Source: Victivallaceae bacterium
GTDB lineage: Bacteria > Verrucomicrobiota > Lentisphaeria > Victivallales > Victivallaceae
Length of the DNA: 64,000 nucleotides
Direction of reading: 5' to 3'
Assembly (NCBI GenBank): GCA_045654745.1
Contig: JAZONW010000015.1
Span: 2,250-66,249 of the forward strand
How positions within the stretch are numbered: position 1 is the stretch's first letter; every line of letters starts with the position of its first letter. Below the pieces are notes generated by a model. The model ran no database searches, had not been told where the DNA came from, and saw only the letters and a list, made by a program, of their open reading frames with translations. The position numbers were made by a program, and so were the translations under genes. Of the stretch, positions 29,724-52,181 are shown in pieces.

Positions 29724-30797
29724 TTATACAGCAGTTTTATTATTTTCCTCTGTCACAAAATTAAAAAAGCCATTCATGAAATCCGGTATGTCGTTGCGTT
29801 CAAATTCCATATTTATACCACTTCCCGTCAGATAGATGAAACTGCTGGTGAATTTAGCCCGCAAAGTTATCGAGCAATTTTGATTGAGCAATTTGAAAAT
29901 CAGGATCTCTGTCGGCAAACTGCCGGCCATATATTTTATTTGGTTTTGACCGTCGCTTTTTTTATCCTTTATATGCGGATGATATTTTACAATAAGCGCA
30001 TCATATTTTTTCAAATCACTCTCATCATAAATCGCGGTACCGCTCCATTCAGTCGGCAGTAGAAGCACTTCTTGATCTTTCATTTCATCCAGCCACGGAT
30101 AAGCGGAAAAATCAAAAAAACGATCCAGTTTTTTAAAGTTTTCGCAAGGGGAAAATTTCAATTGACGCAGAACTTTTCTTGAACGGCACGGGATCAGGGG
30201 GTATTGCGGATAATAAAGGTGGATCTCTTTTGTCCACTTGCTGGTATTGATACCGGTACCGCAACCGGAAATAAGATGGGCAAGTTCTCTTATCCATTCA
30301 AAACATAATTTACTTATCCAGCGGTGTTTGGCAAGAAAGGGATGGTAAATGGAAAAGGCAACATCGGATTTTGCATAGTTGCCGATGCCTTCCTCAATCA
30401 GGCAAATCCTGCATTTGCGATTGTGCAGTTCTTTCATGAAAAAATTGTTTATTACGCCGTAATCCATCGCATTCCAGTACACTGCAATATTTTTTATTGG
30501 CAGAATGCTCGCCTGCGCCTCTTCTTCCTGATTGAAAAATTCCACCATATCCCACGATGAATCCGTTTCGCGGATGAAATCAGTGAATTTCGCGGCATCG
30601 GCAAATGCGTTTACGACAATGAGCAGGGAAAAAGCATTGGCATCCAGATCAATTGCTTTGAGATTCATGTATTGCAGCGGTTTGGTAATTAAAAAAATGT
30701 GAACAGGTTTTCCGTTGCTGATTTGATTTACCCGGCCGGCAAATTGACGGTCACACTTTTTGCCAAGCAACAGACAATTTAAAAATCTGGTTACCAT
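29724..30797 (-). CDS. Putative sialyltransferase (GT52-like)
   Basis: HIFLITKPLQYMN (compare the TxxQ region of Neisseria Lst). LIEEGIGNY matches the D/E-D/E-G motif and VKYHPH matches the HP motif. Co-located with NeuB/NeuA-family genes. Confidence 0.5.
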   Translation of the reverse strand: MVTRFLNCLLLGKKCDRQFAGRVNQISNGKPVHIFLITKPLQYMNLKAIDLDANAFSLLIVVNAFADAAKFTDFIRETDSSWDMVEFFNQEEEAQASILPIKNIAVYWNAMDYGVINNFFMKELHNRKCRICLIEEGIGNYAKSDVAFSIYHPFLAKHRWISKLCFEWIRELAHLISGCGTGINTSKWTKEIHLYYPQYPLIPCRSRKVLRQLKFSPCENFKKLDRFFDFSAYPWLDEMKDQEVLLLPTEWSGTAIYDESDLKKYDALIVKYHPHIKDKKSDGQNQIKYMAGSLPTEILIFKLLNQNCSITLRAKFTSSFIYLTGSGINMEFERNDIPDFMNGFFNFVTEENNKTAV

Positions 30798-40380: not shown

Positions 40381-41355
40381 TCAATACTGGTTCAGCATTT
40401 TTTGCAGAGCCTGTCTGAATTCCGCTTGAAGTTCTGTTGGTTCAAGCAGTTTGATATTGCCTTCCTGCGACAGGATAAAGGGAAAAAGCACTTCTTTTGC
40501 CACTGCCGGGATTTCCACCGTCCCATCTTGATGGATGACCTGGTGGCTGTGAAGCGGAGAAGATTTCAATCTGTCCAGAGCATAAGATTGAGCATGGAGT
40601 TTGACATTTCGGATTTTTTCAAATCCGAGGAAGTCATCCGGATTTACCGACTCAATGATTTTTTTATCTGGTTTGAATTCGCTTTTAAGCAATTCGGCAC
40701 TCTTTATCCGCTGTAAAGCAAAAGTCCGCGGTTGATTTTTCAGACGGCAGATACCTTTGGTGTACCAGGAATTATTGAAAAATACCATAGTATGCGGTTC
40801 AATGATCCTTTCTGATAAATTTTCCTGCCAGTCAGCATAAGAGATTTTTATCAGATGGCAGGTCTGCCAGCCTTGAAAGACGGTCATAAATATATGAGGT
40901 TCGAGATTGGCATACAATCCGGAAAGGATCGTCAGACTTGACATATTTGCAGTATCCAGAAAATCCGGATTGTTGTTTTGCAGCAGGAAATCCACTGCAT
41001 TACGGATTTTGTTTTTCAGCGGAGCCGGGAAAATATCTTCCGCGATCCTTGCCCCGATGACAGCGGCGATCATTTCGTTTTCATCCAGCAGGGCAGGGGC
41101 GATGAAATCCCAACCGTGGTGTTTGAGATAGTAACCATTGCGGGCGCGGTCAAATGCCAGCGGACAGCCGAATTCATCCTGCAGAGTTTTCATATCCCGC
41201 AGAATGGTTTTTTTACCGCAGTCGATTTCCAGTTCTTCTTCCACAGCAATGCGCCGGAATTCCTTGATCAGTGTTTCCGAATTCGGGTAGCGGTTTTCTT
41301 TGAGCAGGGCGGCGATCCGCATCAGGCGGTGGATCTGGGATTTTTGCATCGGCAT
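40381..41355 (-). CDS. WYL-domain transcriptional regulator (HTH-WYL-WCX architecture)
   Basis: N-terminal wHTH (IHRLMRIAALLKENRYPNSETLIKEF). Central WYL-like segment (IIEPHTMVFFNNSWYTKGICRLKNQPRTFALQRI). 324 aa. Confidence 0.8.
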   Translation of the reverse strand: MPMQKSQIHRLMRIAALLKENRYPNSETLIKEFRRIAVEEELEIDCGKKTILRDMKTLQDEFGCPLAFDRARNGYYLKHHGWDFIAPALLDENEMIAAVIGARIAEDIFPAPLKNKIRNAVDFLLQNNNPDFLDTANMSSLTILSGLYANLEPHIFMTVFQGWQTCHLIKISYADWQENLSERIIEPHTMVFFNNSWYTKGICRLKNQPRTFALQRIKSAELLKSEFKPDKKIIESVNPDDFLGFEKIRNVKLHAQSYALDRLKSSPLHSHQVIHQDGTVEIPAVAKEVLFPFILSQEGNIKLLEPTELQAEFRQALQKMLNQY

Positions 41356-41414
41356 AATGACATTCTCCGGAAAAAATTATGATTTTTTTTGTTTTCCTGA
41401 AACAAAGGGACAAA

Positions 41415-41428
41415 AGATGTCCACTTGC
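41415..41428. promoter_or_regulatory. 14-nt motif AGATGTCCACTTGC (core GGAC-N7-GTCC) in the WYL/MFS divergent region
   Basis: An exact reverse-complement copy lies at 45944-45957. This copy is 60-73 nt upstream of the WYL start codon. Confidence 0.5.
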
Positions 41429-41487
41429 GGATAATATATTACCTGTAATGAATAAATGCAAACTGCAAAATAAAAGGAGTTTGAATT

Positions 41488-41589
41488 ATGCTGAAAAAAT
41501 TTTTTATCAGAATTTTCCGCAGTGCAGATAAAAAAACGGTCAATACTTCTACGCCGTGCCGCTGCTGTCAACTGCTACTGCCTTTTTGA
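41488..41589 (+). CDS. Candidate 33-aa Cys-rich small ORF (MLKKFFIRIFRSADKKTVNTSTPCRCCQLLLPF)
   Basis: Strong SD AAAGGAG (41473-41479) 8 nt before the ATG. It is below the ORF-track cutoff and lies 126 nt upstream of the MFS gene. Confidence 0.3.
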   Translation: MLKKFFIRIFRSADKKTVNTSTPCRCCQLLLPF

Positions 41590-41715: not shown

Positions 41716-43005
41716 ATGATTTATCCAAGTCTGACCGATGCACAGATGAAAAAAAGCCAGAAATTTTATATCGGCTTTAATTTGCTCAACGGTATCGGTT
41801 ATCTCTGTGTTGGTGAAATGATCGGGCTGATAATCGCAACGTTGGGATTTCCAGATGTGATATACACTATCAACGGTGCACTTTTCAACATCGGCTGTAT
41901 CTGGCTGCCGCTCGGTAAGATCGCCACTTCCAAATGGGGTGCCGCCAAAACCCAGTCGAACTTCTGGATATTGCGTAATTTATCTGCCTTGATAATGGTT
42001 TCCTGCGTTATCTGGGTATCATTGGGATATATTTACATCGCCGGAGCGTTTTTGCTGTTTGGTGCATTTATTTTTTACGGTTGCCGTTCAGCCGGGGGAG
42101 TGATGTCAACCGCTTTGGTCGGAAATATTACAGATGCAGACGGCAGAGGCAAATTGCTGGCGTTTGCCAGTATGGCTCACAATATTGTCAGTGCAGTTAT
42201 ACATATCGGTCTGGGATGCCTGATGCTTTACAATCCGTCGATATGGATACTTTTCGGAGTGGTTATTTTTGGAGCGGTTTGCGGGATACTGTCTGCAGTT
42301 TGCCTGCGTTGTATCGATGAGAGCGATGCCATTATGAAAGCCGCAAAAACGCCTCTGATTGCCGATGCGTGGAGTTGTCTTAAAGATTCCGGTTTCCGCC
42401 GGATGGTCATCGCACAGGTTTGCTTTTCTCTGTCGACTGCATTGACTTTTGCGTTAAATGTCCTGATTTTGAAACGCGGATTCAATCTGCCCAATGGCTG
42501 GATCATGCTGATCAACTTTTTCGGCGGTCTGCTCTATGCTGCGGCGGCACGTCCGGCATCAATACTGGGGGATAAAATCGGTCCCCGCAAAGCGATGATT
42601 ATTGGGCACAGCGTGATGTTTTTTATAATATTTTTCTGGCAGGTCGTACCGGCGGAATTTCATTGGTGGAGTGTCGCGCTGCTGCTTTTGATGACCAGTA
42701 TCAGCAGTATGTGCTTCGGTATCTGCAGCGGGATGTACTTTTTGAGATGCATTCCGGTGAAGCACCAGCCGTCAGCTGCTACTTTACAGCAATTGATCAA
42801 CGGCGTGCTGACAGGTTTTATTGCGATGGGGCTTACCACGTTGCTGTGGAGTTTGTGCGACAGATATTGTGCAGATTACATCAGGATCGTTGAAACTTAC
42901 GGTATCGGAGTTGCCGGGATGGAACGTTACCGCTTTTTCTTTTTGCTTGCTCTGCCGTTTGTAGCTCTCGGCTGGATTGGTGTCTGGAGCCAGAAAGAGG
43001 TTTAA
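41716..43005 (+). CDS. MFS transporter
   Basis: 429 aa with about 12 TM helices. RBS AAAGGGA upstream. Confidence 0.7.
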   Translation: MIYPSLTDAQMKKSQKFYIGFNLLNGIGYLCVGEMIGLIIATLGFPDVIYTINGALFNIGCIWLPLGKIATSKWGAAKTQSNFWILRNLSALIMVSCVIWVSLGYIYIAGAFLLFGAFIFYGCRSAGGVMSTALVGNITDADGRGKLLAFASMAHNIVSAVIHIGLGCLMLYNPSIWILFGVVIFGAVCGILSAVCLRCIDESDAIMKAAKTPLIADAWSCLKDSGFRRMVIAQVCFSLSTALTFALNVLILKRGFNLPNGWIMLINFFGGLLYAAAARPASILGDKIGPRKAMIIGHSVMFFIIFFWQVVPAEFHWWSVALLLLMTSISSMCFGICSGMYFLRCIPVKHQPSAATLQQLINGVLTGFIAMGLTTLLWSLCDRYCADYIRIVETYGIGVAGMERYRFFFLLALPFVALGWIGVWSQKEV

Positions 43006-43609
43006 TTTTTAACGCGCCAGCTCATCTGTGAGCGGATGTGAGGGTATCGGATTGTCGTATCTCCGTAGGTTTGGTTTGTAAAATTACGGCAGAGAGTCCG
43101 AAGTTCTTTGTCTATGTAGATTTGGTCATTATCTTCTTCGGTTTTTTCCAATATTTTCAGCCGCCGGGCAAAGAGTGCGGCGTTGTCGTGCAGATATTTT
43201 TGAAAGAGTCTTTCCAAAATATCTGCCGATTCTGGTTGGAGGATCGTTCCGGAGGGTGAAAAATACCAATCAAAATCGGGAATGTTATCTTCCAGAGTGC
43301 TGCATTCCAGAATGGGTAAAACTTCCGGATTAACCATAAAATCGCATTTGATCTCCAGTTTGTAATAAATATTATTATCATCCCAATCGTCGACAAACGG
43401 TTTGGAAATGATTTCCCCGGCGGCAACGACACCGCAAGTTCCGTATCCGACTTTGATCATAAAAAACGATTGCCTATTTTTATATTTCTGTGTTCTTCAA
43501 CGGTAAGCTCGGTGCAATTATTTTCGTACATAATTGCTTCCAGAAATTGCTTCGTGGAGCAGTAAGGATTTGCCGGATCCCATCGGAGGATAATACAATT
43601 TTTTGTCAT
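43002..43609 (-). pseudogene. PUA/EVE-like-pattern protein split by a frameshift at a T6 run
   Basis: A 50-aa ORF 43457-43609 (MTKNCIILRWDPANPY...IKIGNRFL*) overlaps the ATG of ORF 43002-43460 (MIKVGYGTCGVVAAGEI...). One extra T in the T6 run (43461-43466) would fuse them into ...IKIGNRFFMIKVGYG..., about 202 aa. Confidence 0.5.
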
Positions 43610-43631
43610 AATATTTTCCATACAATATTTT

Positions 43632-44474
43632 TTATTTTTGACAAATCACAATGAAATCATTGATGAGTTTATCCAACTTTTTTCGGTCTTTGACCGCGGC
43701 AAGCCAGCGTTCAGGGATGGCGGAATATCCGTAATAAGCACCGGTAATTTGTCCGCAGACAGCGCCGATACTGTCGGCATCTCCCCCCAGATTGACCGCC
43801 GCTGTCAGAGCATTTTCAAAATTATCTGTGGTATGAAAAGCCCACAATGCTGCCTGAAGTGTGGAAACTACCCACCCGGAATTGTTTACTTTTTCCCGGA
43901 TGGTATATTCAGATACAACCCCGGTTTTACTGCCGGATAAGTGCTCCCGGCAAATGTCAGCCATTAAATCCAGTGTTTCCCGGACTTTACAACTGGCGTG
44001 AGTGAGATCGCTCACTTCGTGGATTATGCGGTTGCCCGGAGTGTCGCCATTAAGCAGCAAAGTCGGAGCAAAACGCATAATGGAGCCGTTGCCCTGCGAA
44101 TTTTCAAAACCGTTGACAAGATGCCCTTGTTTCAGTTCGGTGATCCCTTTTGCCGTCGCCGCGCCGACATCAAAAGCATAGTCCAGACTGGAACAGAATC
44201 CATCGTCATACCAGCGGATGAAATTACCGGCAATATCTTTGAGGTCGTATCCCTGACGTCGGACGGCACTTGCCATAATGCACAGAGCCATTGCGCCGTC
44301 ATCGGTCCAGTATCCCGCCGGCGTATTGAAGTGTTGACACGGTATCATTTCTGCGACATGAGGGAAAGAATCCATCTCCATAAATTGTACCGGCGAACCG
44401 AGACAATCTCCCACGATCAATCCCCACAGCATTCCCCGGATACGGTCATATTTTTCGGCAGTTATTGTATTCAT
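43632..44474 (-). CDS. ADP-ribosylglycohydrolase family protein (DraG/ARH-like)
   Basis: IRGMLWGLIVGDCLGSPVQF N-terminal motif, YWTDDGAM, and a C-terminal GGDADSIGAVCGQITGAYYG metal-site motif. 280 aa. Confidence 0.85.
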   Translation of the reverse strand: MNTITAEKYDRIRGMLWGLIVGDCLGSPVQFMEMDSFPHVAEMIPCQHFNTPAGYWTDDGAMALCIMASAVRRQGYDLKDIAGNFIRWYDDGFCSSLDYAFDVGAATAKGITELKQGHLVNGFENSQGNGSIMRFAPTLLLNGDTPGNRIIHEVSDLTHASCKVRETLDLMADICREHLSGSKTGVVSEYTIREKVNNSGWVVSTLQAALWAFHTTDNFENALTAAVNLGGDADSIGAVCGQITGAYYGYSAIPERWLAAVKDRKKLDKLINDFIVICQK

Positions 44475-44475
44475 T

Positions 44476-44877
44476 TTACAGATCTTTCATATAAATTTTT
44501 ACGGTTATCGTCACCCAGTTGCTGAATTCGGCAAATTCTACATTCACGACTTTGCCATAAAGTATTTTGCCTCCGTCTAGCAGGCGGGCAAGGATTTCAT
44601 TTTTTCTGCGCGGGACATATCCAAGTTTTTTTCCGGCTGCATTGTCGATACGGATCGCAAGATCATCATATTTATTATTTGCCTCCCGCACCAGGTAAAC
44701 AACAGTGCCTGTGGGCAGAGATTGAGCTTCTTTTTCAATGTCTTTGACAAAACCGGTTCCGGCGATTTCGCATTCCAAAAGAAAAAGTTCCTGCACAAAA
44801 GGCATTACAAGACCACCGCCTTTGTTAAGTTTGGCGATATCATTCCATTTGTCAAGTTTTATAAGATCATCTGCCAT
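44476..44877 (-). CDS. HIRAN-domain protein
   Basis: CEIAGTGF...GTVVYLVREANNKYDDLAIRIDNAAGKKLGYVPRRKNEILARLLDGG matches the HIRAN pattern (rep.N.yD.nAi.v....iGyvp...a..la.lld). The ATG at 44877 lies 2 nt after the upstream stop. Confidence 0.75.
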   Translation of the reverse strand: MADDLIKLDKWNDIAKLNKGGGLVMPFVQELFLLECEIAGTGFVKDIEKEAQSLPTGTVVYLVREANNKYDDLAIRIDNAAGKKLGYVPRRKNEILARLLDGGKILYGKVVNVEFAEFSNWVTITVKIYMKDL

Positions 44878-44879
44878 AG

Positions 44880-45695
44880 TTAATATTCTGCTCTTATCTC
44901 TTTGAGAAAGGTTATCTGGTTTTTGCAAATACGGATCTCGTTATCCAGTTCCCGCCGTTTTTTTCTTACCGCATCAGGGTCGGACAGGATGGTTTCATAG
45001 GAAAAAGGAATCCTCTGCCGCGTATCGGAAATCTGTTGGGTCAAATCAAAAGTTTTTTTCAGGATTTTTTCCAATTCCTCCCGCAGCAAAGTCAAAGAGT
45101 CTATTTTTTCAACATAATCGATTTTGCCGGAGAGTTTCTCCTCTGCTATATCAGCTAAAAGGAAAAGTTCGTCCCAGTCATTCGCTTTGTAAGCCGCCTG
45201 GATTTGCTCCCAAAGCATATCAGCACCGGCGGGGAGGTCGGGATTCAAATCCGGATGCAGTTTGCGAACGATGTCGTGATAGACTTTTTTGAAAGTTTTT
45301 ACTTCTTCATCAGTCCATTTCCTTGCTGCGAAATGCTCCCTCGCTGTTTGTAATTGGGTCTGCATGGTTTCCAGTTGTGTTTTATAGTCGGCGAATTCTT
45401 TTTCTATGATTTGCTTCACTTCATCATTGGTAATTTTTGTCTCCCGGTTGCGGGCAGCTTGAAAGAGCGATATTTCCCGTTTCAACCGCAGTATTTCCAC
45501 CTGACAGGAAAAAAGTTCATGTTCTTTTTTGCCTAGTTTTAGCATATATTCTGTTTCCAGATTTTTGCCGACCACGCCGATAAGCTGGGAATATTCTTCT
45601 ACCAAAGTGGTATAGTTTTCCCGGGCAAGTTGCAGATCTTTTTTTGTCTTTTCAAATTCGGGGCTGAGGGTCAAAAAATCTTTTGGGATTATCAT
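44880..45695 (-). CDS. J-domain (DnaJ-like) coiled-coil protein
   Basis: The central segment VKTFKKVYHDIVRKLHPDLNPD...WEQIQAAYKANDWDEL carries the HPD tripeptide. Flanking regions are heptad-rich. 271 aa. Confidence 0.7.
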   Translation of the reverse strand: MIIPKDFLTLSPEFEKTKKDLQLARENYTTLVEEYSQLIGVVGKNLETEYMLKLGKKEHELFSCQVEILRLKREISLFQAARNRETKITNDEVKQIIEKEFADYKTQLETMQTQLQTAREHFAARKWTDEEVKTFKKVYHDIVRKLHPDLNPDLPAGADMLWEQIQAAYKANDWDELFLLADIAEEKLSGKIDYVEKIDSLTLLREELEKILKKTFDLTQQISDTRQRIPFSYETILSDPDAVRKKRRELDNEIRICKNQITFLKEIRAEY

Positions 45696-45701
45696 TGAGT
45701 A

Positions 45702-45875
45702 TTACCTTTTTATTTCAGCTAAAAGTTCGTCACTTAAATAAAGTTGATCATTTTTGTCAGCGTTGAGCATATACAGAACATTGTGAAATAGTATCGCCCA
45801 TCGAAAACAGGTTTTTTGTGTATAATGTTTTCCGGGAAACGGGTCGTGTTGCAGCATAAATTCATAGCATCCCAT
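45702..45875 (-). CDS. Doubtful small ORF (57 aa from the first ATG)
   Basis: The track ORF starts at a TTG (45947). An alternative overlapping frame also exists. No recognisable motif. Confidence 0.15.
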   Translation of the reverse strand: MGCYEFMLQHDPFPGKHYTQKTCFRWAILFHNVLYMLNADKNDQLYLSDELLAEIKR

Positions 45876-45943
45876 CCGGGAATAACACAGTTTTTTCCAT
45901 AAAAACCTCCATGAAGATGTTTCTTTAATGTAATATAGTGCAG

Positions 45944-45969
45944 GCAAGTGGACATCTTGCGTCCACTTG
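45944..45969. promoter_or_regulatory. Inverted repeat CAAGTGGAC-N7-GTCCACTTG containing the 14-nt motif shared with the WYL promoter region
   Basis: 9-bp perfect arms (45945-45953 and 45961-45969). It lies between the Lon-like stop (46044) and the J-domain operon. No T-run follows, so it is not a canonical terminator. Confidence 0.5.
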
Positions 45970-46043
45970 AATTGTGGCGTAAAATATTTTTGATTTTTTT
46001 TTGAGAGAAACAGGTAGATATTCGGTTGTTTCGGGATGCCGGA

Positions 46044-47861
46044 TTACTTGAAACTGATCAACAACGCTTTGGCGTACAAAGCAGAATACCAGTAATCTTC
46101 CAAAATTTCTTCAAGGTTGTCTTGAGAGTTTTCTATGGACTCTGCAATTTGAAATGCCCGGATCGGTTCAAGAGAGGGGATGGAGGAAACAAAACACTCC
46201 TGCAGATTTTTCAATGCGCTTTCCCGGGCATTTCTGATCAAATACTGGGCAAAATCTGTGCTGATATCTCTGTATTTGCGAACCAGCAAAACCGTACTTT
46301 TGACAAATGCTGACACTTGCAGTTTCAGAGAAACCTGTGTGTGATAGTCCGTCGGATTTGAAGCAATATCATTGTGGTATTTCAAAGCAAAATCACTGAT
46401 TGTCGCTGCCAGATATTCATTTATTTCAATATCTTCCCGGTATTCATCATTGGGGAATTCTGAAAACGCGGCATTTTTTGTTGCCACCTGGGCTGTCTTG
46501 AAAAGGTTTTCCACTTTTGAAGCGGCAGAGTTAGGCTGCTTGTGCGGCAAGGTTCCGGCGATTTCATCGTGAAGTTTGACTTTATCCTTTTGCGAAAAAG
46601 CCGCCAGTTCACCGCTTTGCAGCAGGAATAATTCCAGCAACTTTTCATTTTCAAATTGTTCTTTGGATAAATGCAGATTTTTGATTGATTCGTAATGACT
46701 GTTGAGTGCATGTACAGCTGCCAGTAAATCTGAAACATTTTCCGGGTCTTCCAACTGGGCTGAAATTGGTGAAGGATGCCGGTCGGGGGAGGTGGAAAGA
46801 GTTTCTTGCAATTTATTTTCGTGCTCGTCGAGCAGTCTGTAAACGGCATTGGTGGCAAATTCAAAATTCCGTTTGTGTATTTTTGCCAAAACTTTTTTGG
46901 CATTGCCGAAAAGCGGTACTTGCCACTTTTTGTGTGCCTGTAAGGTTTTCAGAGCGGTTGTAAACATGGCATAGTGTTCTATGATCCGGAAAATAGCGGC
47001 AGGGAATTTGCCTTCTCTGAATAATTTTTCAAAACCGAAATTGATGTTAAACATTGTACAGACAGAGTTGACAGATTCTTCCGGGATTTTTTTCAGGATG
47101 TCAGTGAGCATCGCGAGATATCTGTTATACTCTTTTTTGAATAATTCTTCGGCATCCCGGGAAATTGCGGTTACGGATTTTTCGTTGATGTATTTTTTTT
47201 CCGGGAAAGATTTGTTGTAGATAAAAGCGAATGCTTCTTCGATATTTCCGACGGGAAAAATGGCGATATCAAGTTTTTCTGCCAGATTGATGATATCGAT
47301 AAGTTTTCCGCTGGCATCTTCGATCATTCTGCGGTATCCGGGGACGAATATGCGTTTTTTGCCGGCTTTTGCGGCAGCGATGATTTTTTCGACGATGCCG
47401 CCGACATCACCGATGGTGCCGTCCGGGAAAATGGTTCCGGTCATGGCAAAATCATCGGGCAGTGAAAGTCCGTCGATCGCGGATAAAATGGCGAGACAAC
47501 TTACCGCACCGGCACTTGGGCCATTGATATCGCCCTGAAATTCGACTGAAATTTTCACTCCGTGCAAGGCGTTGTTGCGGAGCATGGCTGCGGTTATAGC
47601 GGCGAGCCACAGATTATCCCGGATCTCTTTGCCGCTGCCGTTTGGAGTGTCATCGGTAACGGCGATACGCAAGGGTTTGTTTTCATTTGTTTTCTGAAAT
47701 TCAAAAGGCAGATAAGTCAATTTGCCGTTGTTTCCGCGGATTGCCAAACAAGGTATATTGTACGAAACAGTATATGTATTGTTGTTTGCACCAACTTGGA
47801 TAGAGGCCGTATCTGCGGTCATATTTTTGCTTTTTTTACCTCGTGCAGGATTGAAGTGCAA
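46044..47861 (-). CDS. Stand-alone Lon (S16) protease domain fused to a roughly 380-aa helical domain of unknown function
   Basis: DINGPSAGAVSCLAILSAI (catalytic Ser) and AMTGTIFPDGTIGDVGGIVEKIIAAAKAGKKRIFVP (catalytic Lys). No AAA+ module and no signal peptide. The track start 47861 is TTG; the first ATG is 47822. Confidence 0.7.
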   Translation of the reverse strand: MHFNPARGKKSKNMTADTASIQVGANNNTYTVSYNIPCLAIRGNNGKLTYLPFEFQKTNENKPLRIAVTDDTPNGSGKEIRDNLWLAAITAAMLRNNALHGVKISVEFQGDINGPSAGAVSCLAILSAIDGLSLPDDFAMTGTIFPDGTIGDVGGIVEKIIAAAKAGKKRIFVPGYRRMIEDASGKLIDIINLAEKLDIAIFPVGNIEEAFAFIYNKSFPEKKYINEKSVTAISRDAEELFKKEYNRYLAMLTDILKKIPEESVNSVCTMFNINFGFEKLFREGKFPAAIFRIIEHYAMFTTALKTLQAHKKWQVPLFGNAKKVLAKIHKRNFEFATNAVYRLLDEHENKLQETLSTSPDRHPSPISAQLEDPENVSDLLAAVHALNSHYESIKNLHLSKEQFENEKLLELFLLQSGELAAFSQKDKVKLHDEIAGTLPHKQPNSAASKVENLFKTAQVATKNAAFSEFPNDEYREDIEINEYLAATISDFALKYHNDIASNPTDYHTQVSLKLQVSAFVKSTVLLVRKYRDISTDFAQYLIRNARESALKNLQECFVSSIPSLEPIRAFQIAESIENSQDNLEEILEDYWYSALYAKALLISFK

Positions 47862-47948: not shown

Positions 47949-48197
47949 TTGCAGAAGATGCGACAGCCTGGACATGCTACTGTTGATATGACTGTCCGCT
48001 ACACGCACGTGGCTCTGGATGCCAAAATCAAAGCTGTTCAAGCTCTTCCTGTATTAGGTGATAATCGCATTCAGAACGATACCTTTGCGGAGGTTATTTG
48101 CAATCTTCCGGCAGAAAAACTTCCACGTCTGGCAACACTTCTGGATGCTTATCTGCCATTAAGTCAAAAAGAAGAACTGTTATTGAAATTGAGATAA
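47949..48197 (+). pseudogene. Tyrosine recombinase (phage integrase) 3' remnant
   Basis: Only the extreme C-terminal catalytic box is present (GHATVDMTVRYTHV, catalytic Tyr), then an unrelated tail. No upstream integrase sequence is present. The track 'start' is TTG. Confidence 0.6.
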
Positions 48198-48214
48198 CTC
48201 AAACTGAAAAATAT

Positions 48215-48243
48215 GGAACTGTCAAGAACAGCTTGACAGTTCC
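48215..48243. terminator. Bidirectional hairpin terminator
   Basis: 12-bp perfect stem GGAACTGTCAAG/CTTGACAGTTCC with a 5-nt loop and T-runs on both strands. It lies between the convergent integrase remnant and the 125-aa gene. Confidence 0.65.
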
Positions 48244-48287
48244 GCAGTGTTTTATAAATTTGTATGATTTAATACGCAACAGCTATT

Positions 48288-48665
48288 TTAAAAATTCCAA
48301 CCGTTTTGTCTGCTCGTTTCCAACGCCTGTTTTGCCATACTTTTTATTGCTTCTTCGGCACAGTATTTCATTATGGCAACAAAGTAAATACTCTGAACGA
48401 TGTTGTTTAATTCATTGCATAATTGCCAGTCAGAAATGTTACCGGACCGTAAAGCATTCATAAAAAATTGATTTGGCAGATAATATTTATCCAGCAGCTT
48501 CAACAATGTATTGATTGCTTTCTGCCGCTCAAAAACCTGCAATACCCCGATAGCTTCCTGCCGGTCATTTTCTATTTCCATTGCCTTACAACAGCCTTCA
48601 AGAAATTTTTGCAATGTTTCCGTTTGCTGCTTTTGTATTTCCCATTGTTCTTCTGAATAATACAT
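48288..48665 (-). CDS. Hypothetical 125-aa helical protein, last gene of the AT-rich cassette
   Basis: Good RBS (AAAGGAAAGGA) before the ATG at 48665, 36 nt downstream of the ATPase stop. No motif recognised. Confidence 0.5.
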   Translation of the reverse strand: MYYSEEQWEIQKQQTETLQKFLEGCCKAMEIENDRQEAIGVLQVFERQKAINTLLKLLDKYYLPNQFFMNALRSGNISDWQLCNELNNIVQSIYFVAIMKYCAEEAIKSMAKQALETSRQNGWNF

Positions 48666-48701
48666 TGTGTCCTTTCCTTTGTATAACTATTCTAACTTCA
48701 G

Positions 48702-50423
48702 TTAAAGCAAAAGTTGATTATCAGCAATAGATGGATATTTTTTGTTTATTTTATCTCTAATTTCTTTTTCTTGTGCCTGTACTAAAGGATTTTTAACTTC
48801 AATAAGAGCTTCTAAAAGACTAATACAAAAATCTCTGCAAATTTGAGAATTCCGTTTACACCATGCTTCAAATAAAGTAGCAGATGAAGGACCGAAATGT
48901 CCATCTCGCTGTTGCTCATCAAACCATTTTTTATAGCGTTTTTTCTTTTCTTGTTCGCTTGTTAACAGAGGATCTGCTTCAATATTGTTGTTATTTGCTA
49001 TGCAAAAGCTTTGTTGAACTCCCATAATGTCCCAAATTTGATCATCATCATTCAAATTAACCAAAAAAAGATTCATTTCTTTTTCAATGAAGTATTGCCC
49101 CGGTAGAGATAAAAGTGTTTTTGATTTTTTGGAAATTAACGATTTTGAATCTGGGTCTAATATATAAATAACTTTTTGAAAATCGGGTATTTTTTTACTG
49201 ACCAGATGGCGAACAATATTCAGTAAAACACCATTTGATAAACATGTTTCAGAATTACGATTTTCTGTATTAAATGTCTTCAAGCAACCATCAAAAATAC
49301 GTCCAACTATTCGCTTGAAAAAATTGCACCCTACAACATCTTCAAACACAATTGATGTTTTCTCTATTTCTCGAATTTTTGCTTTCTTTTGAATGTGTGC
49401 TAAATCAGATGCAACAAAATCATAATCTACATCATTATTTATTTCAACATTTTTACCTTTTTTCTGGAAATAAACACATTTTACGTTTGATTTATGTTTT
49501 TGCAAAGCATCTTCTAATACAGGCAATGAATGCGTTGTTGTAATGATCTGAATATTTAGACTAGTGGAATATTCTACTAATTTTTGAAGTAACAACTTTT
49601 GGGCGACGGGGTGTAATGTTGCATCAAATTCATCTATCAACAATACACCTCCTTGATAATGCTCTTTTAGTTCCTTTTTTAATCTATGGAAAGAAATAAT
49701 TGCACTTATAATCTGTCCCAAATTATCTTGACCAGCAGAGGCACTTTCTGCATCAAAATAAGTAGTTTCAACTGAATGATATGATTGTTTAAAACTTTTT
49801 CCAGTATTCAGGTGTTCCGGCAAAAGTTTTTCATTACCATTGCAAATCATAACAACTCGATAAATATCATTCCAAATACGCTTCTCATCTTCTGGTAAAA
49901 CGTCTTTTCCGATAATATCTTTTTTGGATAGTGTAGATAACGGTCTTAAACGTTCTAAACCTAAATATATTACAGGATGTGGGAAGTTGCCTACTCCGGG
50001 AGACCTGTTGGTACTATTGGTAACCATACGAATACTTTGTTCTCCTCTTTTCTCTGATCTTACGGGTAATTCACTACAACCATCATTTATTACCTCACCT
50101 TTTAACCGCAAGACATAATCAAGGTTTCTCGGCTTATCAAATTTTTGAGAAATACGAAATACTTCAGAAAATTTAGCTTGAAAATTTCGTTCACCAACAG
50201 TTTTATATCTAGAAAGGTCAAAACTGTCGTACACTCTTGTATAAATAGATAACTTCTCTCTTTTTTTAGGGAACCCCAATGGTTGTGCAATCATGCCGAG
50301 TAAAGTTGACTTAGCAGTACCATTCAGCCCAGCTAATAAAGTTACCCGATCTCCTAATTCAATATTTGTTCCTGGGATAAAGCAACGAAAACTGTTAACA
50401 TAAATACTTTGAACTGATATCAT
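48702..50423 (-). CDS. ABC/SMC-type ATPase with C-terminal Toprim-like (OLD-family/DUF4435-like) domain
   Basis: Walker A GLNGTAKST, signature-like SAGQ, Walker B VLLIDEFDATLHP, H-loop TTTHS. The C-terminal part has IVFEDVVG and YILDPD motifs that resemble Toprim Glu and DxD. 573 aa. Confidence 0.55.
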   Translation of the reverse strand: MISVQSIYVNSFRCFIPGTNIELGDRVTLLAGLNGTAKSTLLGMIAQPLGFPKKREKLSIYTRVYDSFDLSRYKTVGERNFQAKFSEVFRISQKFDKPRNLDYVLRLKGEVINDGCSELPVRSEKRGEQSIRMVTNSTNRSPGVGNFPHPVIYLGLERLRPLSTLSKKDIIGKDVLPEDEKRIWNDIYRVVMICNGNEKLLPEHLNTGKSFKQSYHSVETTYFDAESASAGQDNLGQIISAIISFHRLKKELKEHYQGGVLLIDEFDATLHPVAQKLLLQKLVEYSTSLNIQIITTTHSLPVLEDALQKHKSNVKCVYFQKKGKNVEINNDVDYDFVASDLAHIQKKAKIREIEKTSIVFEDVVGCNFFKRIVGRIFDGCLKTFNTENRNSETCLSNGVLLNIVRHLVSKKIPDFQKVIYILDPDSKSLISKKSKTLLSLPGQYFIEKEMNLFLVNLNDDDQIWDIMGVQQSFCIANNNNIEADPLLTSEQEKKKRYKKWFDEQQRDGHFGPSSATLFEAWCKRNSQICRDFCISLLEALIEVKNPLVQAQEKEIRDKINKKYPSIADNQLLL

Positions 50424-51304
50424 TTTTCATCTCCCATCGTATGTTTTTTATGGATTAACAATTCCGAAGCAATTCTTACCTTCTGCATAGTGTATTGAAT
50501 AGGAAATTCTTCAATTATGATTCCTGAAAAATTTTTGTATATATCTTTTATTTCAGAACAATTATCGTAAGTCATTAACCAGGGGCAAAAATCGAAATTA
50601 TTGATATGGTCTGCCAATGCGATGTGATCTTCTGTCGTATAAAAGTTTAAATACAATTTACTGCCATTGTGAAAATACGGAGGATCTAAATATAAAAAAG
50701 TATCTTGAGGAGTTGAGGTTAAAAAAGGCAATGTTTTTAGAAAATCAATTGCATCCATAGATACAAATTTGATATGTTCATGGTTAGACGCAATTGTTTT
50801 AATTTTTTCTATTAAAGAACCTTTTTTAAAGCGTGCATCCAAAGTGTAGTTGCCGTTTTGCAAATATCCACCAATCGGGCCAGCCTTGGGCAAAATGCCA
50901 GAACGGTTACATCTATTTAGAAAAAAAGTTGAAAAGCCAACTAACAATAAATCTTTTTTATTTTTTAAGTTAAATTGCTGAATATTATCATAAATATTCC
51001 TTTGTATTTTCCATTCTTTGATGGATATTGGTGTGTTTTCGATGCATTCAATGAAATCATCTGGCATAGAAAGTATACTTTGCCAGAAAGAAGCGATGTG
51101 AGGGTCAAAATCATTGATAACAATATTTTCTATATGTTTATTAAGAAGCAAGGCAAGTGCGACACCCGCACCTCCTGCGAAAGGTTCACAATATGTTCCG
51201 TGTGATGATATGCCATATTTTTTTAACATTTCGACAAAGAAATTGGCAATGGAAGCTTTGCCACCGGGATACCGAAGTGGACTAAAACTATTTCTGCTTC
51301 CCAT
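50420..51304 (-). CDS. N6-adenine DNA methyltransferase, Dam/D12 class
   Basis: LRYPGGK, EPFAGGAG (motif I) and LYLDPPYF (motif IV). ATGA overlap with the ATPase gene. The ATG at 51304 follows AGAAGG; the track start is TTG. Confidence 0.85.
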   Translation of the reverse strand: MGSRNSFSPLRYPGGKASIANFFVEMLKKYGISSHGTYCEPFAGGAGVALALLLNKHIENIVINDFDPHIASFWQSILSMPDDFIECIENTPISIKEWKIQRNIYDNIQQFNLKNKKDLLLVGFSTFFLNRCNRSGILPKAGPIGGYLQNGNYTLDARFKKGSLIEKIKTIASNHEHIKFVSMDAIDFLKTLPFLTSTPQDTFLYLDPPYFHNGSKLYLNFYTTEDHIALADHINNFDFCPWLMTYDNCSEIKDIYKNFSGIIIEEFPIQYTMQKVRIASELLIHKKHTMGDEK

Positions 51305-51358
51305 AATAATCAATACCTTCTTAATCTTTAATAATTATAGTTTAAGTTTGCCGTTTAA

Positions 51359-51469
51359 TCATGAAACCGGATTCATTGAAATCAGCAAATAACGACCGCG
51401 TTGCGTTTTACCAGAAGCGTCAACGCTTCCCAGTTCTTGAGAACCACATTTTTTCAAAAAGTATTTCAT
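51359..51469 (-). CDS. 36-aa ORF (MKYFLKKCGSQELGSVDASGKTQRGRYLLISMNPVS), possibly an N-terminal remnant of a lost gene
   Basis: Starts 2 nt after the XRE stop. It is below the track cutoff, and its function and reality are uncertain. Confidence 0.2.
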   Translation of the reverse strand: MKYFLKKCGSQELGSVDASGKTQRGRYLLISMNPVS

Positions 51470-51471
51470 AA

Positions 51472-51678
51472 TCAATCCACCTGTTCAATTTCCATAATAT
51501 CAGCAATACCACATTCAAGGGCGGCACATATTTTCAGCAAAACATCAGTCGTAACATTCTCTCCTTTTCCAAGTTTAGCGAGAGTTACTGAACTTATCCC
51601 GGCCAGCTTTCTCAAATCGCCCTTTGTCATTTTTTTATCAATGAGCAATTTCCACAGTTTCCTGTAATCTGTTTTCAT
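51472..51678 (-). CDS. XRE-family HTH regulator (controller-protein-like)
   Basis: MTKGDLRKLAGISSVTLAKLGKGENVTTDVLLKICAALECGIADIMEI is a Cro/C1-type HTH. The ATG at 51678 is preceded by GAGGA. Confidence 0.8.
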   Translation of the reverse strand: MKTDYRKLWKLLIDKKMTKGDLRKLAGISSVTLAKLGKGENVTTDVLLKICAALECGIADIMEIEQVD

Positions 51679-51759
51679 ATTTATGTCCTCAAGGTGCATA
51701 TCAACGTATTACATATCCGAAAGTAATATATCACAGAAAAGAAGAATTTACAAACCCAA

Positions 51760-51819
51760 GATTTGCAAAAACAAATTTTTTTTATACCAGCAAGAAGAAA
51801 AACAATCGATTTGCAAAAA
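51760..51819. repeat. Two direct copies of GATTTGCAAAAA (51760-51771 and 51808-51819)
   Basis: Read directly from the sequence, 48 nt apart, upstream of the XRE gene. Confidence 0.6.
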
Positions 51820-51833
51820 ATTTGAGTTATATA

Positions 51834-51845
51834 TCACTATAGTGA
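51834..51845. promoter_or_regulatory. Perfect 12-bp palindrome TCACTATAGTGA
   Basis: Read directly from the sequence, about 155 nt upstream of the XRE start. A possible operator. Confidence 0.35.
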
Positions 51846-51937
51846 GATAAGCTCACGATCAAATATCAGCCTTGCCGGTTCTTCGGGATCGGCAGGGATT
51901 TTTGTCCATTAACAATCCTTACTTGAAGTTTGGGTTA

Positions 51938-51972
51938 TTGCTTACAATTTTGCTTACATCCTATGTAAGCAA
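51938..51972. repeat. Three copies of the 9-mer TTGCTTACA (two direct, one inverted)
   Basis: 51938-51946, 51950-51958 and the inverted copy 51964-51972 (TGTAAGCAA). They sit at the tRNA-proximal edge of the AT-rich cassette. Confidence 0.6.
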
Positions 51973-52065
51973 ATCGTAAGTAGAGAGTCAAATCATCAAC
52001 CTTAACCAATAGATACCAAAGTTGTCAAGAGCGATGAGATGTAAGCGTAAATCGTTGATTTTGAG

Positions 52066-52097
52066 CAAAAAAAAGGACTTGTCGTTAAACAAGTCCT
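52066..52097 (-). terminator. Rho-independent terminator of tRNA-Met
   Basis: 9-bp stem AGGACTTGT/ACAAGTCCT (52074-52082 and 52089-52097), followed on the minus strand by a T-run of at least 7 nt (A-run 52067-52073 on plus). Confidence 0.7.
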
Positions 52098-52106
52098 GTA
52101 AAGTGC

Positions 52107-52181
52107 TGGTAGCGGGGGCTGGAATCGAACCAACGGCCTTCAGGTTATGAGCCTGACGAGCTACCACTGCTCCACCCCGCA
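52107..52181 (-). tRNA. tRNA-Met (anticodon CAT), initiator-like
   Basis: Hand-folded 75-nt cloverleaf. It is close to E. coli tRNA-fMet (GCGGGGTGGAGCAG...CTCATAA...). There is a position 1:72 mismatch (T.T), encoded CCA, and only two G-C pairs at the base of the anticodon stem. Confidence 0.85.

Follow-up and report, generated by a model that had tools for sequence, protein, structure and literature searches.

In a 64,000-nt stretch of the genome of a Victivallaceae bacterium, a gut or rumen organism of Lentisphaeria type (this whole stretch is the window, and all coordinates are window positions), a conspicuous string of genes encoding a Lon-like protease, a J-domain protein, a HIRAN protein, an ADP-ribosylglycohydrolase (ARH) and a split PUA-like product contains a much smaller conserved unit. 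Judged by comparison of related loci, that unit appears to be the gene pair encoding the J protein followed by the HIRAN protein, which is tightly coupled and widespread. The string as a whole is a lineage-specific accretion around this two-gene core, with two decaying copies of an ancestral third gene. Beside the pair there seems to be a place for a swappable accessory gene, occupied by an EVE-like gene that we call X in most Lentisphaeria-type loci, by ARH here, and by Macro in one locus. What would be new is the J-HIRAN core, no description of which was found in full-text literature searches; in kind, it would belong with known stress-regulated conflict or repair operons. We regard the anatomical conclusions on the locus as a whole as very likely correct. 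The functional reading that we prefer is that the widespread pair, apparently induced by a damage-sensing regulator, works with a swappable reader or eraser of ADP-ribose or of modified bases; this reading, its mechanism included, seems to us evenly balanced between right and wrong.

The case for the core lies in the constancy of its arrangement. About 18 independent loci encoding relatives of the J protein were compared, from Lentisphaeria, Victivallaceae, uncultured Lachnospiraceae, Atopobiaceae, Methanobrevibacter, and one high-GC organism, with four IMG/VR viral contigs included in the set. The HIRAN gene directly follows the J gene in all of these distinct loci, either overlapping it by 4 to 13 nt or separated from it by 1 to 74 nt, and this is the sole arrangement kept in every locus. 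The pair spans four phyla, including one archaeon, in addition to the four viral contigs. A profile search of 1.84 billion representatives assigned to the J family no fewer than 1,065 clusters formed at 50% identity (E ≤ 1e-30). A genome scan with a seven-sequence J alignment, which used a single peptide pattern, gave 7 loci only; a repeat search of viral contigs, this time with a Firmicutes-type J alignment, yielded the four already in the set, and J homologues were not found in GenBank phages or PLSDB plasmids. Most Lentisphaeria copies of the pair are surrounded by metabolic genes, and in some loci the neighbors are restriction-modification (R-M), AbiE, and transposase genes and also LlaJI, MmeI, and PD-Lambda-5. 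Uncharacterized neighbors in three loci (L031, 226 aa; L035, 251 aa; L013, 175 and 145 aa) had no match in Pfam or PADLOC.

The window operon consists of its own promoter with a palindromic operator (45930 to 45969), an internally deleted remnant of X in the ancestral position upstream of J (45702 to 45900), the J gene (44880 to 45695), the HIRAN gene (44476 to 44877), and the ARH gene (43632 to 44474), all on the minus strand; a second decayed copy of X (43002 to 43621, minus strand) follows ARH. A preliminary description, made from the letters of the DNA, had placed the genes co-directionally on the minus strand, and their open reading frame (ORF) coordinates are confirmed, as are the spacings of 2 nt between the J stop codon and the HIRAN ATG and of 1 nt between the HIRAN stop codon and the ARH ATG. 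Its remark that the block is low in GC holds loosely at best, for the J (41.9%), HIRAN (41.5%), and Lon-like (43.6%) genes, compared with 45.2% for the whole window, and does not hold for ARH (48.9%). No named defense system had been recognized in the block, and PADLOC indeed found no match to the J, ARH, Lon-like, or X proteins; as had been expected, the scan was nearly empty, the sole match being that of the HIRAN protein to the C-terminal part of PDC-M03B. What did not survive comparison is the module itself. The five genes are not one conserved unit across the J-HIRAN loci compared, and the order J-HIRAN-ARH, which had been proposed as a smaller candidate module, is repeated in none of the roughly 18 distinct loci and is unique to this genome. 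Both versions of the module fail, by the criterion set in the preliminary description itself, because the order is not conserved and because the relatives of the Lon-like and ARH proteins have unrelated neighbors. For genome scanning, the lesson is that a striking five-gene string can hide a small two-gene core.

The first product of the core is an all-helical coiled coil with an embedded J domain. It had been described as a J-domain protein with an intact HPD motif inside a coiled coil, and profile matching and residue conservation support this despite a subthreshold Pfam DnaJ match (5e-5), which scores 23.7 where 27.8 is the gathering score. When 17 family members are combined in a profile, the helix II-HPD-helix III portion of solved J domains is matched at 1e-7, and in the HPD motif of the 17 relatives H147 and D149 are invariant and P148 is nearly so. 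The canonical helix I is unrecognizable, and the coiled coil stands in its place. An AF2 model of the protein (pLDDT 90) gave no significant match in a Foldseek search of the PDB, the best coiled-coil look-alike being ClyA at E 0.1. The intact-HPD J domain within an otherwise unrelated scaffold is reminiscent of phage RB43 Rki, DjlA, and HscB, which are specialized J-domain proteins without the client-binding region of DnaJ. By analogy, an embedded J domain of this type would be expected to bring DnaK to one particular place or client. Unlike Rki, DjlA, and HscB, the window protein appears to share no sequence or fold similarity with them outside the J domain, and its obligatory partner would be a DNA-end-binding protein. 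The scaffold also accepts other domains: two further families of N-terminal domains of about 90 to 155 aa, without a Pfam match and without similarity to X, are fused to it (P0358, P0390, P0386, P0379, P0474 and P0357, P0363), and both could be sensor or reader modules of an alternative kind. For most of the N-terminal extensions found in J relatives there is likewise no Pfam or PADLOC match, and the X profile does not match them either.

The second product, taken to be a stand-alone HIRAN domain, is confirmed as such by Pfam (HIRAN, 6e-17) and matches the solved bacterial stand-alone HIRAN protein 3k2y at 2e-10 and HLTF HIRAN at 7e-3. Among 15 partners, R64, N68, and D71 do not vary, and in the alignment these residues fall on the PNNPYD loop of HLTF HIRAN; a mostly Y/H residue of the J-associated HIRAN proteins also aligns with the NNPYD portion of the loop, and NNKYDD in the window protein aligns with NNPYDK in HLTF. 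In the HLTF structures, the NNPYD loop contacts the 3'-terminal nucleotide and its 3'-OH. The J-associated subfamily alone keeps an N-terminal extension of about 30 residues, in which P26 is invariant and F27 nearly invariant. By its Pfam match and its conserved pocket-aligned residues, the protein thus resembles both HLTF HIRAN and 3k2y; unlike the HLTF domain, the J-associated HIRAN has no helicase, nuclease, or kinase partner. We rejected PDC-M03 as an identity for the pair, the match being a partial one to the C-terminal ~100 residues of the M03B models (1e-10), with no match to the partner PDC-M03A in the PADLOC scan. Prokaryotic HIRAN proteins have been called uncharacterized (PMC11090510), and the present comparison gives a bacterial HIRAN protein a constant partner, a putative dedicated Hsp70 co-chaperone, together with a likely inducing signal, single-stranded DNA (ssDNA).

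The third gene of the ancestral arrangement is X, which encodes about 178 aa, has no Pfam family, and immediately precedes J in seven Lentisphaeria-type arrangements, in the order X-J-HIRAN. The split ORF of the window (43457 to 43621 plus 43002 to 43460) is homologous to X by tblastn. It had been guessed to be PUA/EVE-like, and judging from the model of an intact homologue (P0235; pLDDT 95.4) the guess is right as to the fold: Foldseek matched P0235 to 2ar1, 2eve, and YTH domains (E 8e-5 to 1e-3; template modeling score 0.5 to 0.58), further best PDB matches being THYN1 domains and the N-terminal domain of VcaM4I, which reads modified cytosine. The apparent frameshift of this displaced copy is a one-base loss in a run of T at 43461 to 43466, where a seventh T would restore ...GNRFFMIKVG (compare GDxFFMLKVG in the family). 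The copy is decayed or strongly diverged: of the residues that the family keeps, 7 of the 22 invariant ones and 7 of the 20 near-invariant ones are gone, and the C terminus runs about 27 aa past the usual end of the family. An 18-nt near-perfect palindrome (94%) lies inside it at 43190 to 43226. The remnant at 45702 to 45900, compared with the DNA of a related locus (L006), has kept the leader, the ribosome binding site (RBS), and some 150 nt at the 5' end and 50 nt at the 3' end, on either side of an internal deletion of about 310 nt; its assignment is supported by a blastp match of orf73 to the X N terminus (6e-5). This genome appears to have lost X twice, and its operon holds ARH instead. 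X was not found on the viral contigs searched, and longer or fused X relatives had no match in Pfam or PADLOC. In one such protein, P0354, the EVE-like X domain is joined to a small HD domain whose best match is the solved (p)ppApp hydrolase 7smg (1.4e-10), which hints that X-type domains may work with nucleotide-derived ligands.

Regulation supplies the second line of argument. The candidate controller of the operon is a helix-turn-helix (HTH)-WYL-WCX gene at 40381 to 41355 (minus strand), the product of which matches WYL (4e-15) and WCX (1e-6) in Pfam and WYL in PADLOC (7e-25). We tie it to the operon because the two share an operator-like element. Upstream of the X remnant, the element at 45930 to 45969 reads AAGTGGAC-GCAAGAT-GTCCACTT-GCCTGCAC-TATATTAC, or AAGTGGAC-N7-GTCCACTT-N8-TATATTAC, and its perfect palindrome, GTGGAC-N7-GTCCAC, is found a single time in the 64 kb, where 0 are expected. 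The second operator/promoter-like copy, at 41403 to 41442 on the plus strand and directed away from the WYL gene, reads GGGAC-N7-GTCCACTT-N8-TATATTAC and matches the first at 78% over 40 nt; it is the top inverted repeat in the 8-kb region, and a pattern search for the element gave 4 matches against 0.02 expected. Related loci keep the same features. An 82%-identical WYL orthologue lies near X-J-HIRAN in L006 to L008, and in L006 the element also stands beside the WYL gene in the same divergent position as in the window. The palindrome and its spacing to TATATT are kept upstream of X or J in L006 to L009, a degenerate palindrome (GTTGAC-N7-GTCTAC) precedes J in L013, and the 8-nt spacing to TATATT is constant in L006 to L009 and L013. 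WYL-WCX genes lie beside the module also in L011, L013, and L015, and such genes accompany it in five arrangements altogether. A scan for sigma-70 promoters and terminators did not exceed shuffled controls, and the operon boundaries were not defined by it.

These features are familiar from DriD and CapW, HTH-WYL-WCX dimers that bind palindromes of about 20 bp and whose DNA binding is switched by ssDNA (PMC9186387, PMC13004042, PMC11662680). The window regulator shares their architecture (that of CapW/BrxR and DriD) and, like them, has a palindrome of about 20 bp both at the promoter and at its own gene. DriD sites occupy the place of the -35 element at a fixed distance from the -10 element (PMC9186387, PMC13004042), and the palindrome here stands at a fixed 8-nt distance from the -10-like TATATT. 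The likeness is one of genes and sites, in which repressor and activator modes look alike. In the viral loci, which are of Firmicutes type, capH-like and capP-like genes bracket J-HIRAN (L031 and L033) or a capP-like gene precedes it (L032); CapH/CapP are an alternative ssDNA-responsive regulator of immune operons (PMC13228613; bioRxiv 10.1101/2022.04.27.489752), so that WYL and CapH/CapP-like regulators alternate between J-HIRAN loci as they do in immune operons. Unlike the operons of CapW, CapH-CapP, and DriD, the cargo here is J-HIRAN with or without EVE or ARH, a combination of which no mention was found in part of that literature. From the shared candidate site and the published behavior of DriD and CapW, we infer that the operon is induced by ssDNA arising from DNA damage or phage replication.

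Three side observations concern the same element. At 30221 to 30240, inside a minus-strand gene, the operator half-pattern is matched a third time, with one mismatch (GGATCTCTTTTGTCCACTTG); this match could be due to chance or could be a further site of the WYL regulator. Downstream of the second operator copy, at 41469 to 41570 on the plus strand, an AAAGGAG RBS is followed by a 33-codon ORF (MLKKFFIRIFRSADKK...) that could be a leader peptide or a remnant. It lies ahead of a major facilitator superfamily (MFS) transporter gene at 41716 to 43005, which may be under WYL control as well.

Taken with the accessory genes, these features allow a mechanism to be proposed. Most likely, the WYL-WCX regulator would respond to ssDNA that arises through DNA damage or phage replication, and the operon would be switched on; in other loci, a CapH/CapP-like pair would take over this role. 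HIRAN would then anchor a complex at 3'-OH DNA ends, where the J domain would recruit DnaK and trigger its ATPase, leading to unfolding or stripping of a protein bound at the end. The accessory protein, which is ARH here and EVE-like X, Macro, or a fused domain elsewhere, would recognize or remove ADP-ribose or another nucleotide modification on this protein or the DNA. The earlier suggestion that the genes sense or reverse ADP-ribosylation at DNA ends is a live hypothesis and now better supported, when applied to a J-HIRAN core and its variable accessory gene and not to the string as it was drawn. It is live because ARH-J fusions and Macro, ARPP plus ARG (ADP-ribosylglycohydrolase), and Tpt1/KptA neighbors recur independently.

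The window ARH is a well-preserved member of its family (Pfam ADP_ribosyl_GH, 4.7e-57). Its metal-site motifs GDCLG and GGDADS are intact in the translation, as had been reported, and a TDD motif is present as well. Among NCBIfam models it scores 178 bits against Tri1 (2e-52; cut-off 490) and 121 bits against DraG (4e-35; cut-off 337); its best PDB matches are 2cwc, Lmo0067, Tri1, and DraG, the Thermus thermophilus ARH being among the closest. The link of ARH to J-HIRAN looks real from the proteins compared, despite a gene order unique to the window genome; it is credible because ARH-J fusions exist from two ARH subfamilies, which is hard to explain by chance. Three of the 150 best J representatives (P0371, P0382, and P0429) carry an N-terminal ARH domain, and these domains fall in the two subfamilies. 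P0371 (WP_299298938.1; ARH Pfam 2e-66) represents 159 sequences, among which one is assigned to an uncultured Fretibacterium. P0429 lacks the catalytic acidic motifs, having GEIADS and GSDCSA and no DD motif, and with its catalytic aspartates lost it may therefore be a reader of ADP-ribose rather than an enzyme. Among the loci, ARH stands beside the pair in the window only, so that ARG is adjacent in one of about 18 and nearby in one more, the Methanobrevibacter locus (L035), where ARPP-1 and ARG lie 2.3 kb upstream of the pair. In L017 a Macro gene immediately precedes J, the J-HIRAN locus L038 contains Tpt1/KptA and NUDIX genes, and a rhodanese/DSP-type (DSP/PTP) phosphatase gene lies in L013. 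Loci with ADP-ribose enzymes number 4, against 0.14 to 0.7 expected (Poisson p 1e-5 to 6e-3).

Several points weigh against the preferred reading. The enrichment estimate is post hoc and therefore suggestive only. Most of the pairs (14 of about 18 loci) have no nearby ADP-ribose enzyme; ARH or Macro directly adjoins the pair at 2 of the roughly 18 loci, and 3 of the 150 representatives are fusions. The Macro protein of L017 is of the common MacroD/YmdB type, its gene lies beside holB, and it could be a housekeeping neighbor. The ARH-J fusions were compared as protein sequences, and a HIRAN gene following them is presumed. ARH itself differs in GC (48.9%, where J and HIRAN have about 41.7%) and may have been inserted recently, with no functional relation to the pair. 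More generally, the binding of J to HIRAN, the recruitment of DnaK, and the binding of the WYL protein to the palindrome are all steps that we infer, and the family is known from sequences and models. Finally, no effector such as a nuclease is found at the locus, which is unusual for an immune system.

The scarcity of ADP-ribose enzymes near the pair, the common type and position of the L017 Macro gene, the deviating GC of ARH, and the fact that the closest ARH relatives (58 to 59% identity) have other, unrelated neighbors would also fit chance neighborhood, that is, a self-contained J-HIRAN pair next to an unrelated ARH, with the ADP-ribose theme contributed by variable regions that are rich in such genes. 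Against this stand the origin of the ARH-J fusions in two subfamilies, one of the fusions being represented by 159 sequences, the 1-nt HIRAN-ARH spacing, which suggests cotranslation, and published work in which ARG, ARPP, HIRAN, and WYL are linked independently (PMC9503650). We consider chance neighborhood unlikely.

The purpose of the pair may be repair or tolerance, or else immunity. A repair role is favored by the Y-family polymerase neighbors, the DriD-like regulation, and the metabolic surroundings in Lentisphaeria; an immune role is favored by the patchy cross-domain distribution, the prophage-like contigs, the LlaJI, MmeI, and PD-Lambda-5 neighbors, and the CapH/CapP-like genes. On two distinct viral contigs (L031, 5327 to 6568; L033, 6002 to 7243), a Y-family (ImpB/MucB/SamB) polymerase gene is divergent from the capH-like/J/HIRAN/capP-like cluster, and in L009 an IMS polymerase gene lies about 9 kb away. 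Alternatively, the pair might be a pure host accessory of DNA-damage tolerance or repair with no role in conflict; it would then belong to a DriD/PafBC-like regulon whose task is the clearing of stalled 3' ends. DriD-type WYL-WCX regulators do control damage responses (PMC9186387), HLTF HIRAN recognizes 3' ends at stalled forks, and L006 contains RtcR and RtcB. The patchy spread across domains, the prophage-like contigs, the R-M neighbors, and the CapH/CapP-like genes are, however, typical of mobile conflict genes, and we rate a purely repair-related purpose as improbable; it overlaps with the explanation that we prefer and differs from it only in purpose.

The opposite extreme is a toxin-antitoxin or abortive-infection pair, in which J, having a J domain but no client-binding domain, would misdirect or exhaust DnaK and HIRAN would be an antitoxin or a DNA-triggered switch. 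Small, translationally coupled genes with a patchy distribution, found on viral contigs and near R-M, AbiE, and transposase genes, would suit such a pair; its regulators match those of immune operons, and an antitoxin role has been predicted for HIRAN proteins that adjoin HipA kinases (PMC11706625). No HipA-family kinase lies beside the pair in the window or in the loci examined (a kinase in L007 is about 9 kb off and nonadjacent), and a HipA-HIRAN toxin-antitoxin cluster was rejected on this ground. Most Lentisphaeria copies lie among metabolic genes, the regulator is stress responsive and not of the classic toxin-antitoxin autoregulatory kind, and the recurrent reader or eraser accessory genes are unexplained by a toxin-antitoxin scheme. 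The lack of an obvious effector argues against a classical abortive-infection system. Such a pair, too, we find improbable.

The Lon-like protease gene is judged to be independent of the module. It lies at 46044 to 47822 on the minus strand, with an ATG start and an alternative upstream TTG at 47861, and encodes an ATPase-less S16 protease (Pfam Lon_C, 3.6e-11) with a helical C-terminal domain of about 400 aa; the Ser-Lys Lon domain fused to a helical domain was correctly read from the translation, GPSAG and the lysine of EKIIAAAK both being present. The copy is full length, as its closest relative P0116 shares the start, and truncation of the N terminus was thereby discarded. A BrxL or other Lon-like defense protease was likewise rejected, with no PADLOC match and with relatives in unrelated contexts. 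At 30 to 47% identity, relatives occur in three unrelated neighborhoods (L019 to L021) without J, HIRAN, or ARH, where they are accompanied by DUF463, DUF697, and dynamin genes, by a Sel1/TPR partner, or by housekeeping genes. It is because the neighbors of its relatives are unrelated that we do not count the gene as a module member, and a role for the protease in the module is unsupported. The family is confined to Lentisphaeria, Victivallaceae, and Kiritimatiellae, and the N terminus carries nothing, a signal peptide, or a zinc ribbon. A single system of all five genes, serving in conflict or in the reversal of ADP-ribosylation and having the protease for its effector or regulator, is therefore barely credible: the genes are co-directional and tightly spaced and adjoin a PD-Lambda-5-like island and a WYL gene, but the relatives of the protease live apart from J, HIRAN, and ARH, the Lon-like gene is in none of the other J-HIRAN loci examined, the conserved promoter/operator of the operon separates it from J-HIRAN-ARH, and the PUA-like gene is a decayed, displaced copy.

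Of the systems that have been described, the closest are the ARG-centric host systems against viral ADP-ribosylation that Iyer et al. predicted in 2022 by computation only (PMC9503650, section 3.8). In these systems ARG is accompanied by a WYL or Nudix regulator and by phosphatases, chaperones, Macro/NADAR, and ARPP, and ARPP-HIRAN and ARPP-WYL gene pairs were reported (PMC9503650). Similarly, the window has an ARG/ARH gene with no ADP-ribosyltransferase (ART) or sirtuin (SIR2) domain in the ten neighboring proteins scanned, a WYL one-component regulator that shares the 40-nt operator-like element with the operon, and a chaperone-type component, and the loci carry variable accreted genes such as Macro and phosphatases. 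The differences concern what is central. J-HIRAN is the core here and ARG an occasional accessory, whereas ARG is the core in PMC9503650; the chaperones of those systems are vWA, SseB, and TY-Chap, with no mention of a J domain or DnaJ in that paper, and HIRAN figures there only as a partner of ARPP. Moreover, no phosphatase (R-P, HD, calcineurin-like, or HAD) or ARPP is present among the window proteins scanned. DarTG, DraT/DraG, and Tre1/Tri1 also include an enzyme that removes ADP-ribose, and the window ARH is nearest to the Tri1/DraG-like arginine-specific group. Unlike these systems, the window has no ART among the annotated neighbors, its ARH scores far below the equivalog cut-offs of Tri1 and DraG, and it uses ARH where DarG uses a Macro domain. 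On these grounds, a DarTG-like module was rejected.

More broadly, J-HIRAN might be the core of an unrecognized and widespread class of ssDNA- or damage-induced systems, in which a 3'-end sensor steers Hsp70 to nucleoprotein targets and interchangeable ARH, Macro, or EVE proteins read or erase ADP-ribosylation, or another nucleotide modification, on DNA ends or on proteins bound to DNA, as a counter to phage or toxin ADP-ribosyltransferases; we put this forward tentatively and consider it possible but doubtful. If true, it would be the first case of DnaK delivered to DNA ends by a dedicated adaptor, and chaperone action would be physically tied to the reversal of ADP-ribosylation. The host counter to such transferases has so far been addressed by computational prediction only (PMC9503650). 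The family lends itself to testing, with more than 1,000 sequence clusters in bacteria and a methanogen and with ARH-J fusions that occur in nature and establish which of the parts act jointly.

The surroundings of the block are as had been described, a WYL-WCX regulator on one side and a methyltransferase, an ATPase, and tRNA-Met on the other. In L006 (5379 to 9385), and also in L007 and L008, which together are the closest syntenic relatives, the WYL orthologue is separated from X-J-HIRAN by an RtcR-RtcB RNA-repair operon; the same stretch contains genes for a 152-aa coiled-coil protein and an HNH-like 89-aa protein, and a YggL-like gene follows HIRAN. In the window, a low-GC island (47949 to 52181; 31 to 36% GC) lies beside the block and is bounded by tRNA-Met (52107 to 52181). 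It contains a tyrosine integrase fragment (C-terminal part; plus strand, 47949 to 48197; phrog_1, 3e-4), a 125-aa ORF with no assigned family (48288 to 48665), a 573-aa AAA_15/GajA-PtuA-like ATPase gene (48702 to 50423; phrog_3940, 3e-93) with a GC content at third codon positions of 21%, a D12 methyltransferase gene of the PD-Lambda-5_B-like type (50420 to 51313; PADLOC 1e-100) that overlaps the ATPase gene, and a small HTH gene (51472 to 51699). An attachment-site repeat of tRNA-Met was searched for and not found for this island, and an Rfam scan reported only two tRNAs. Between the integrase fragment and the 125-aa ORF, at 48214 to 48244, lies a strong hairpin with a 13-bp stem that is terminator-like in both directions.

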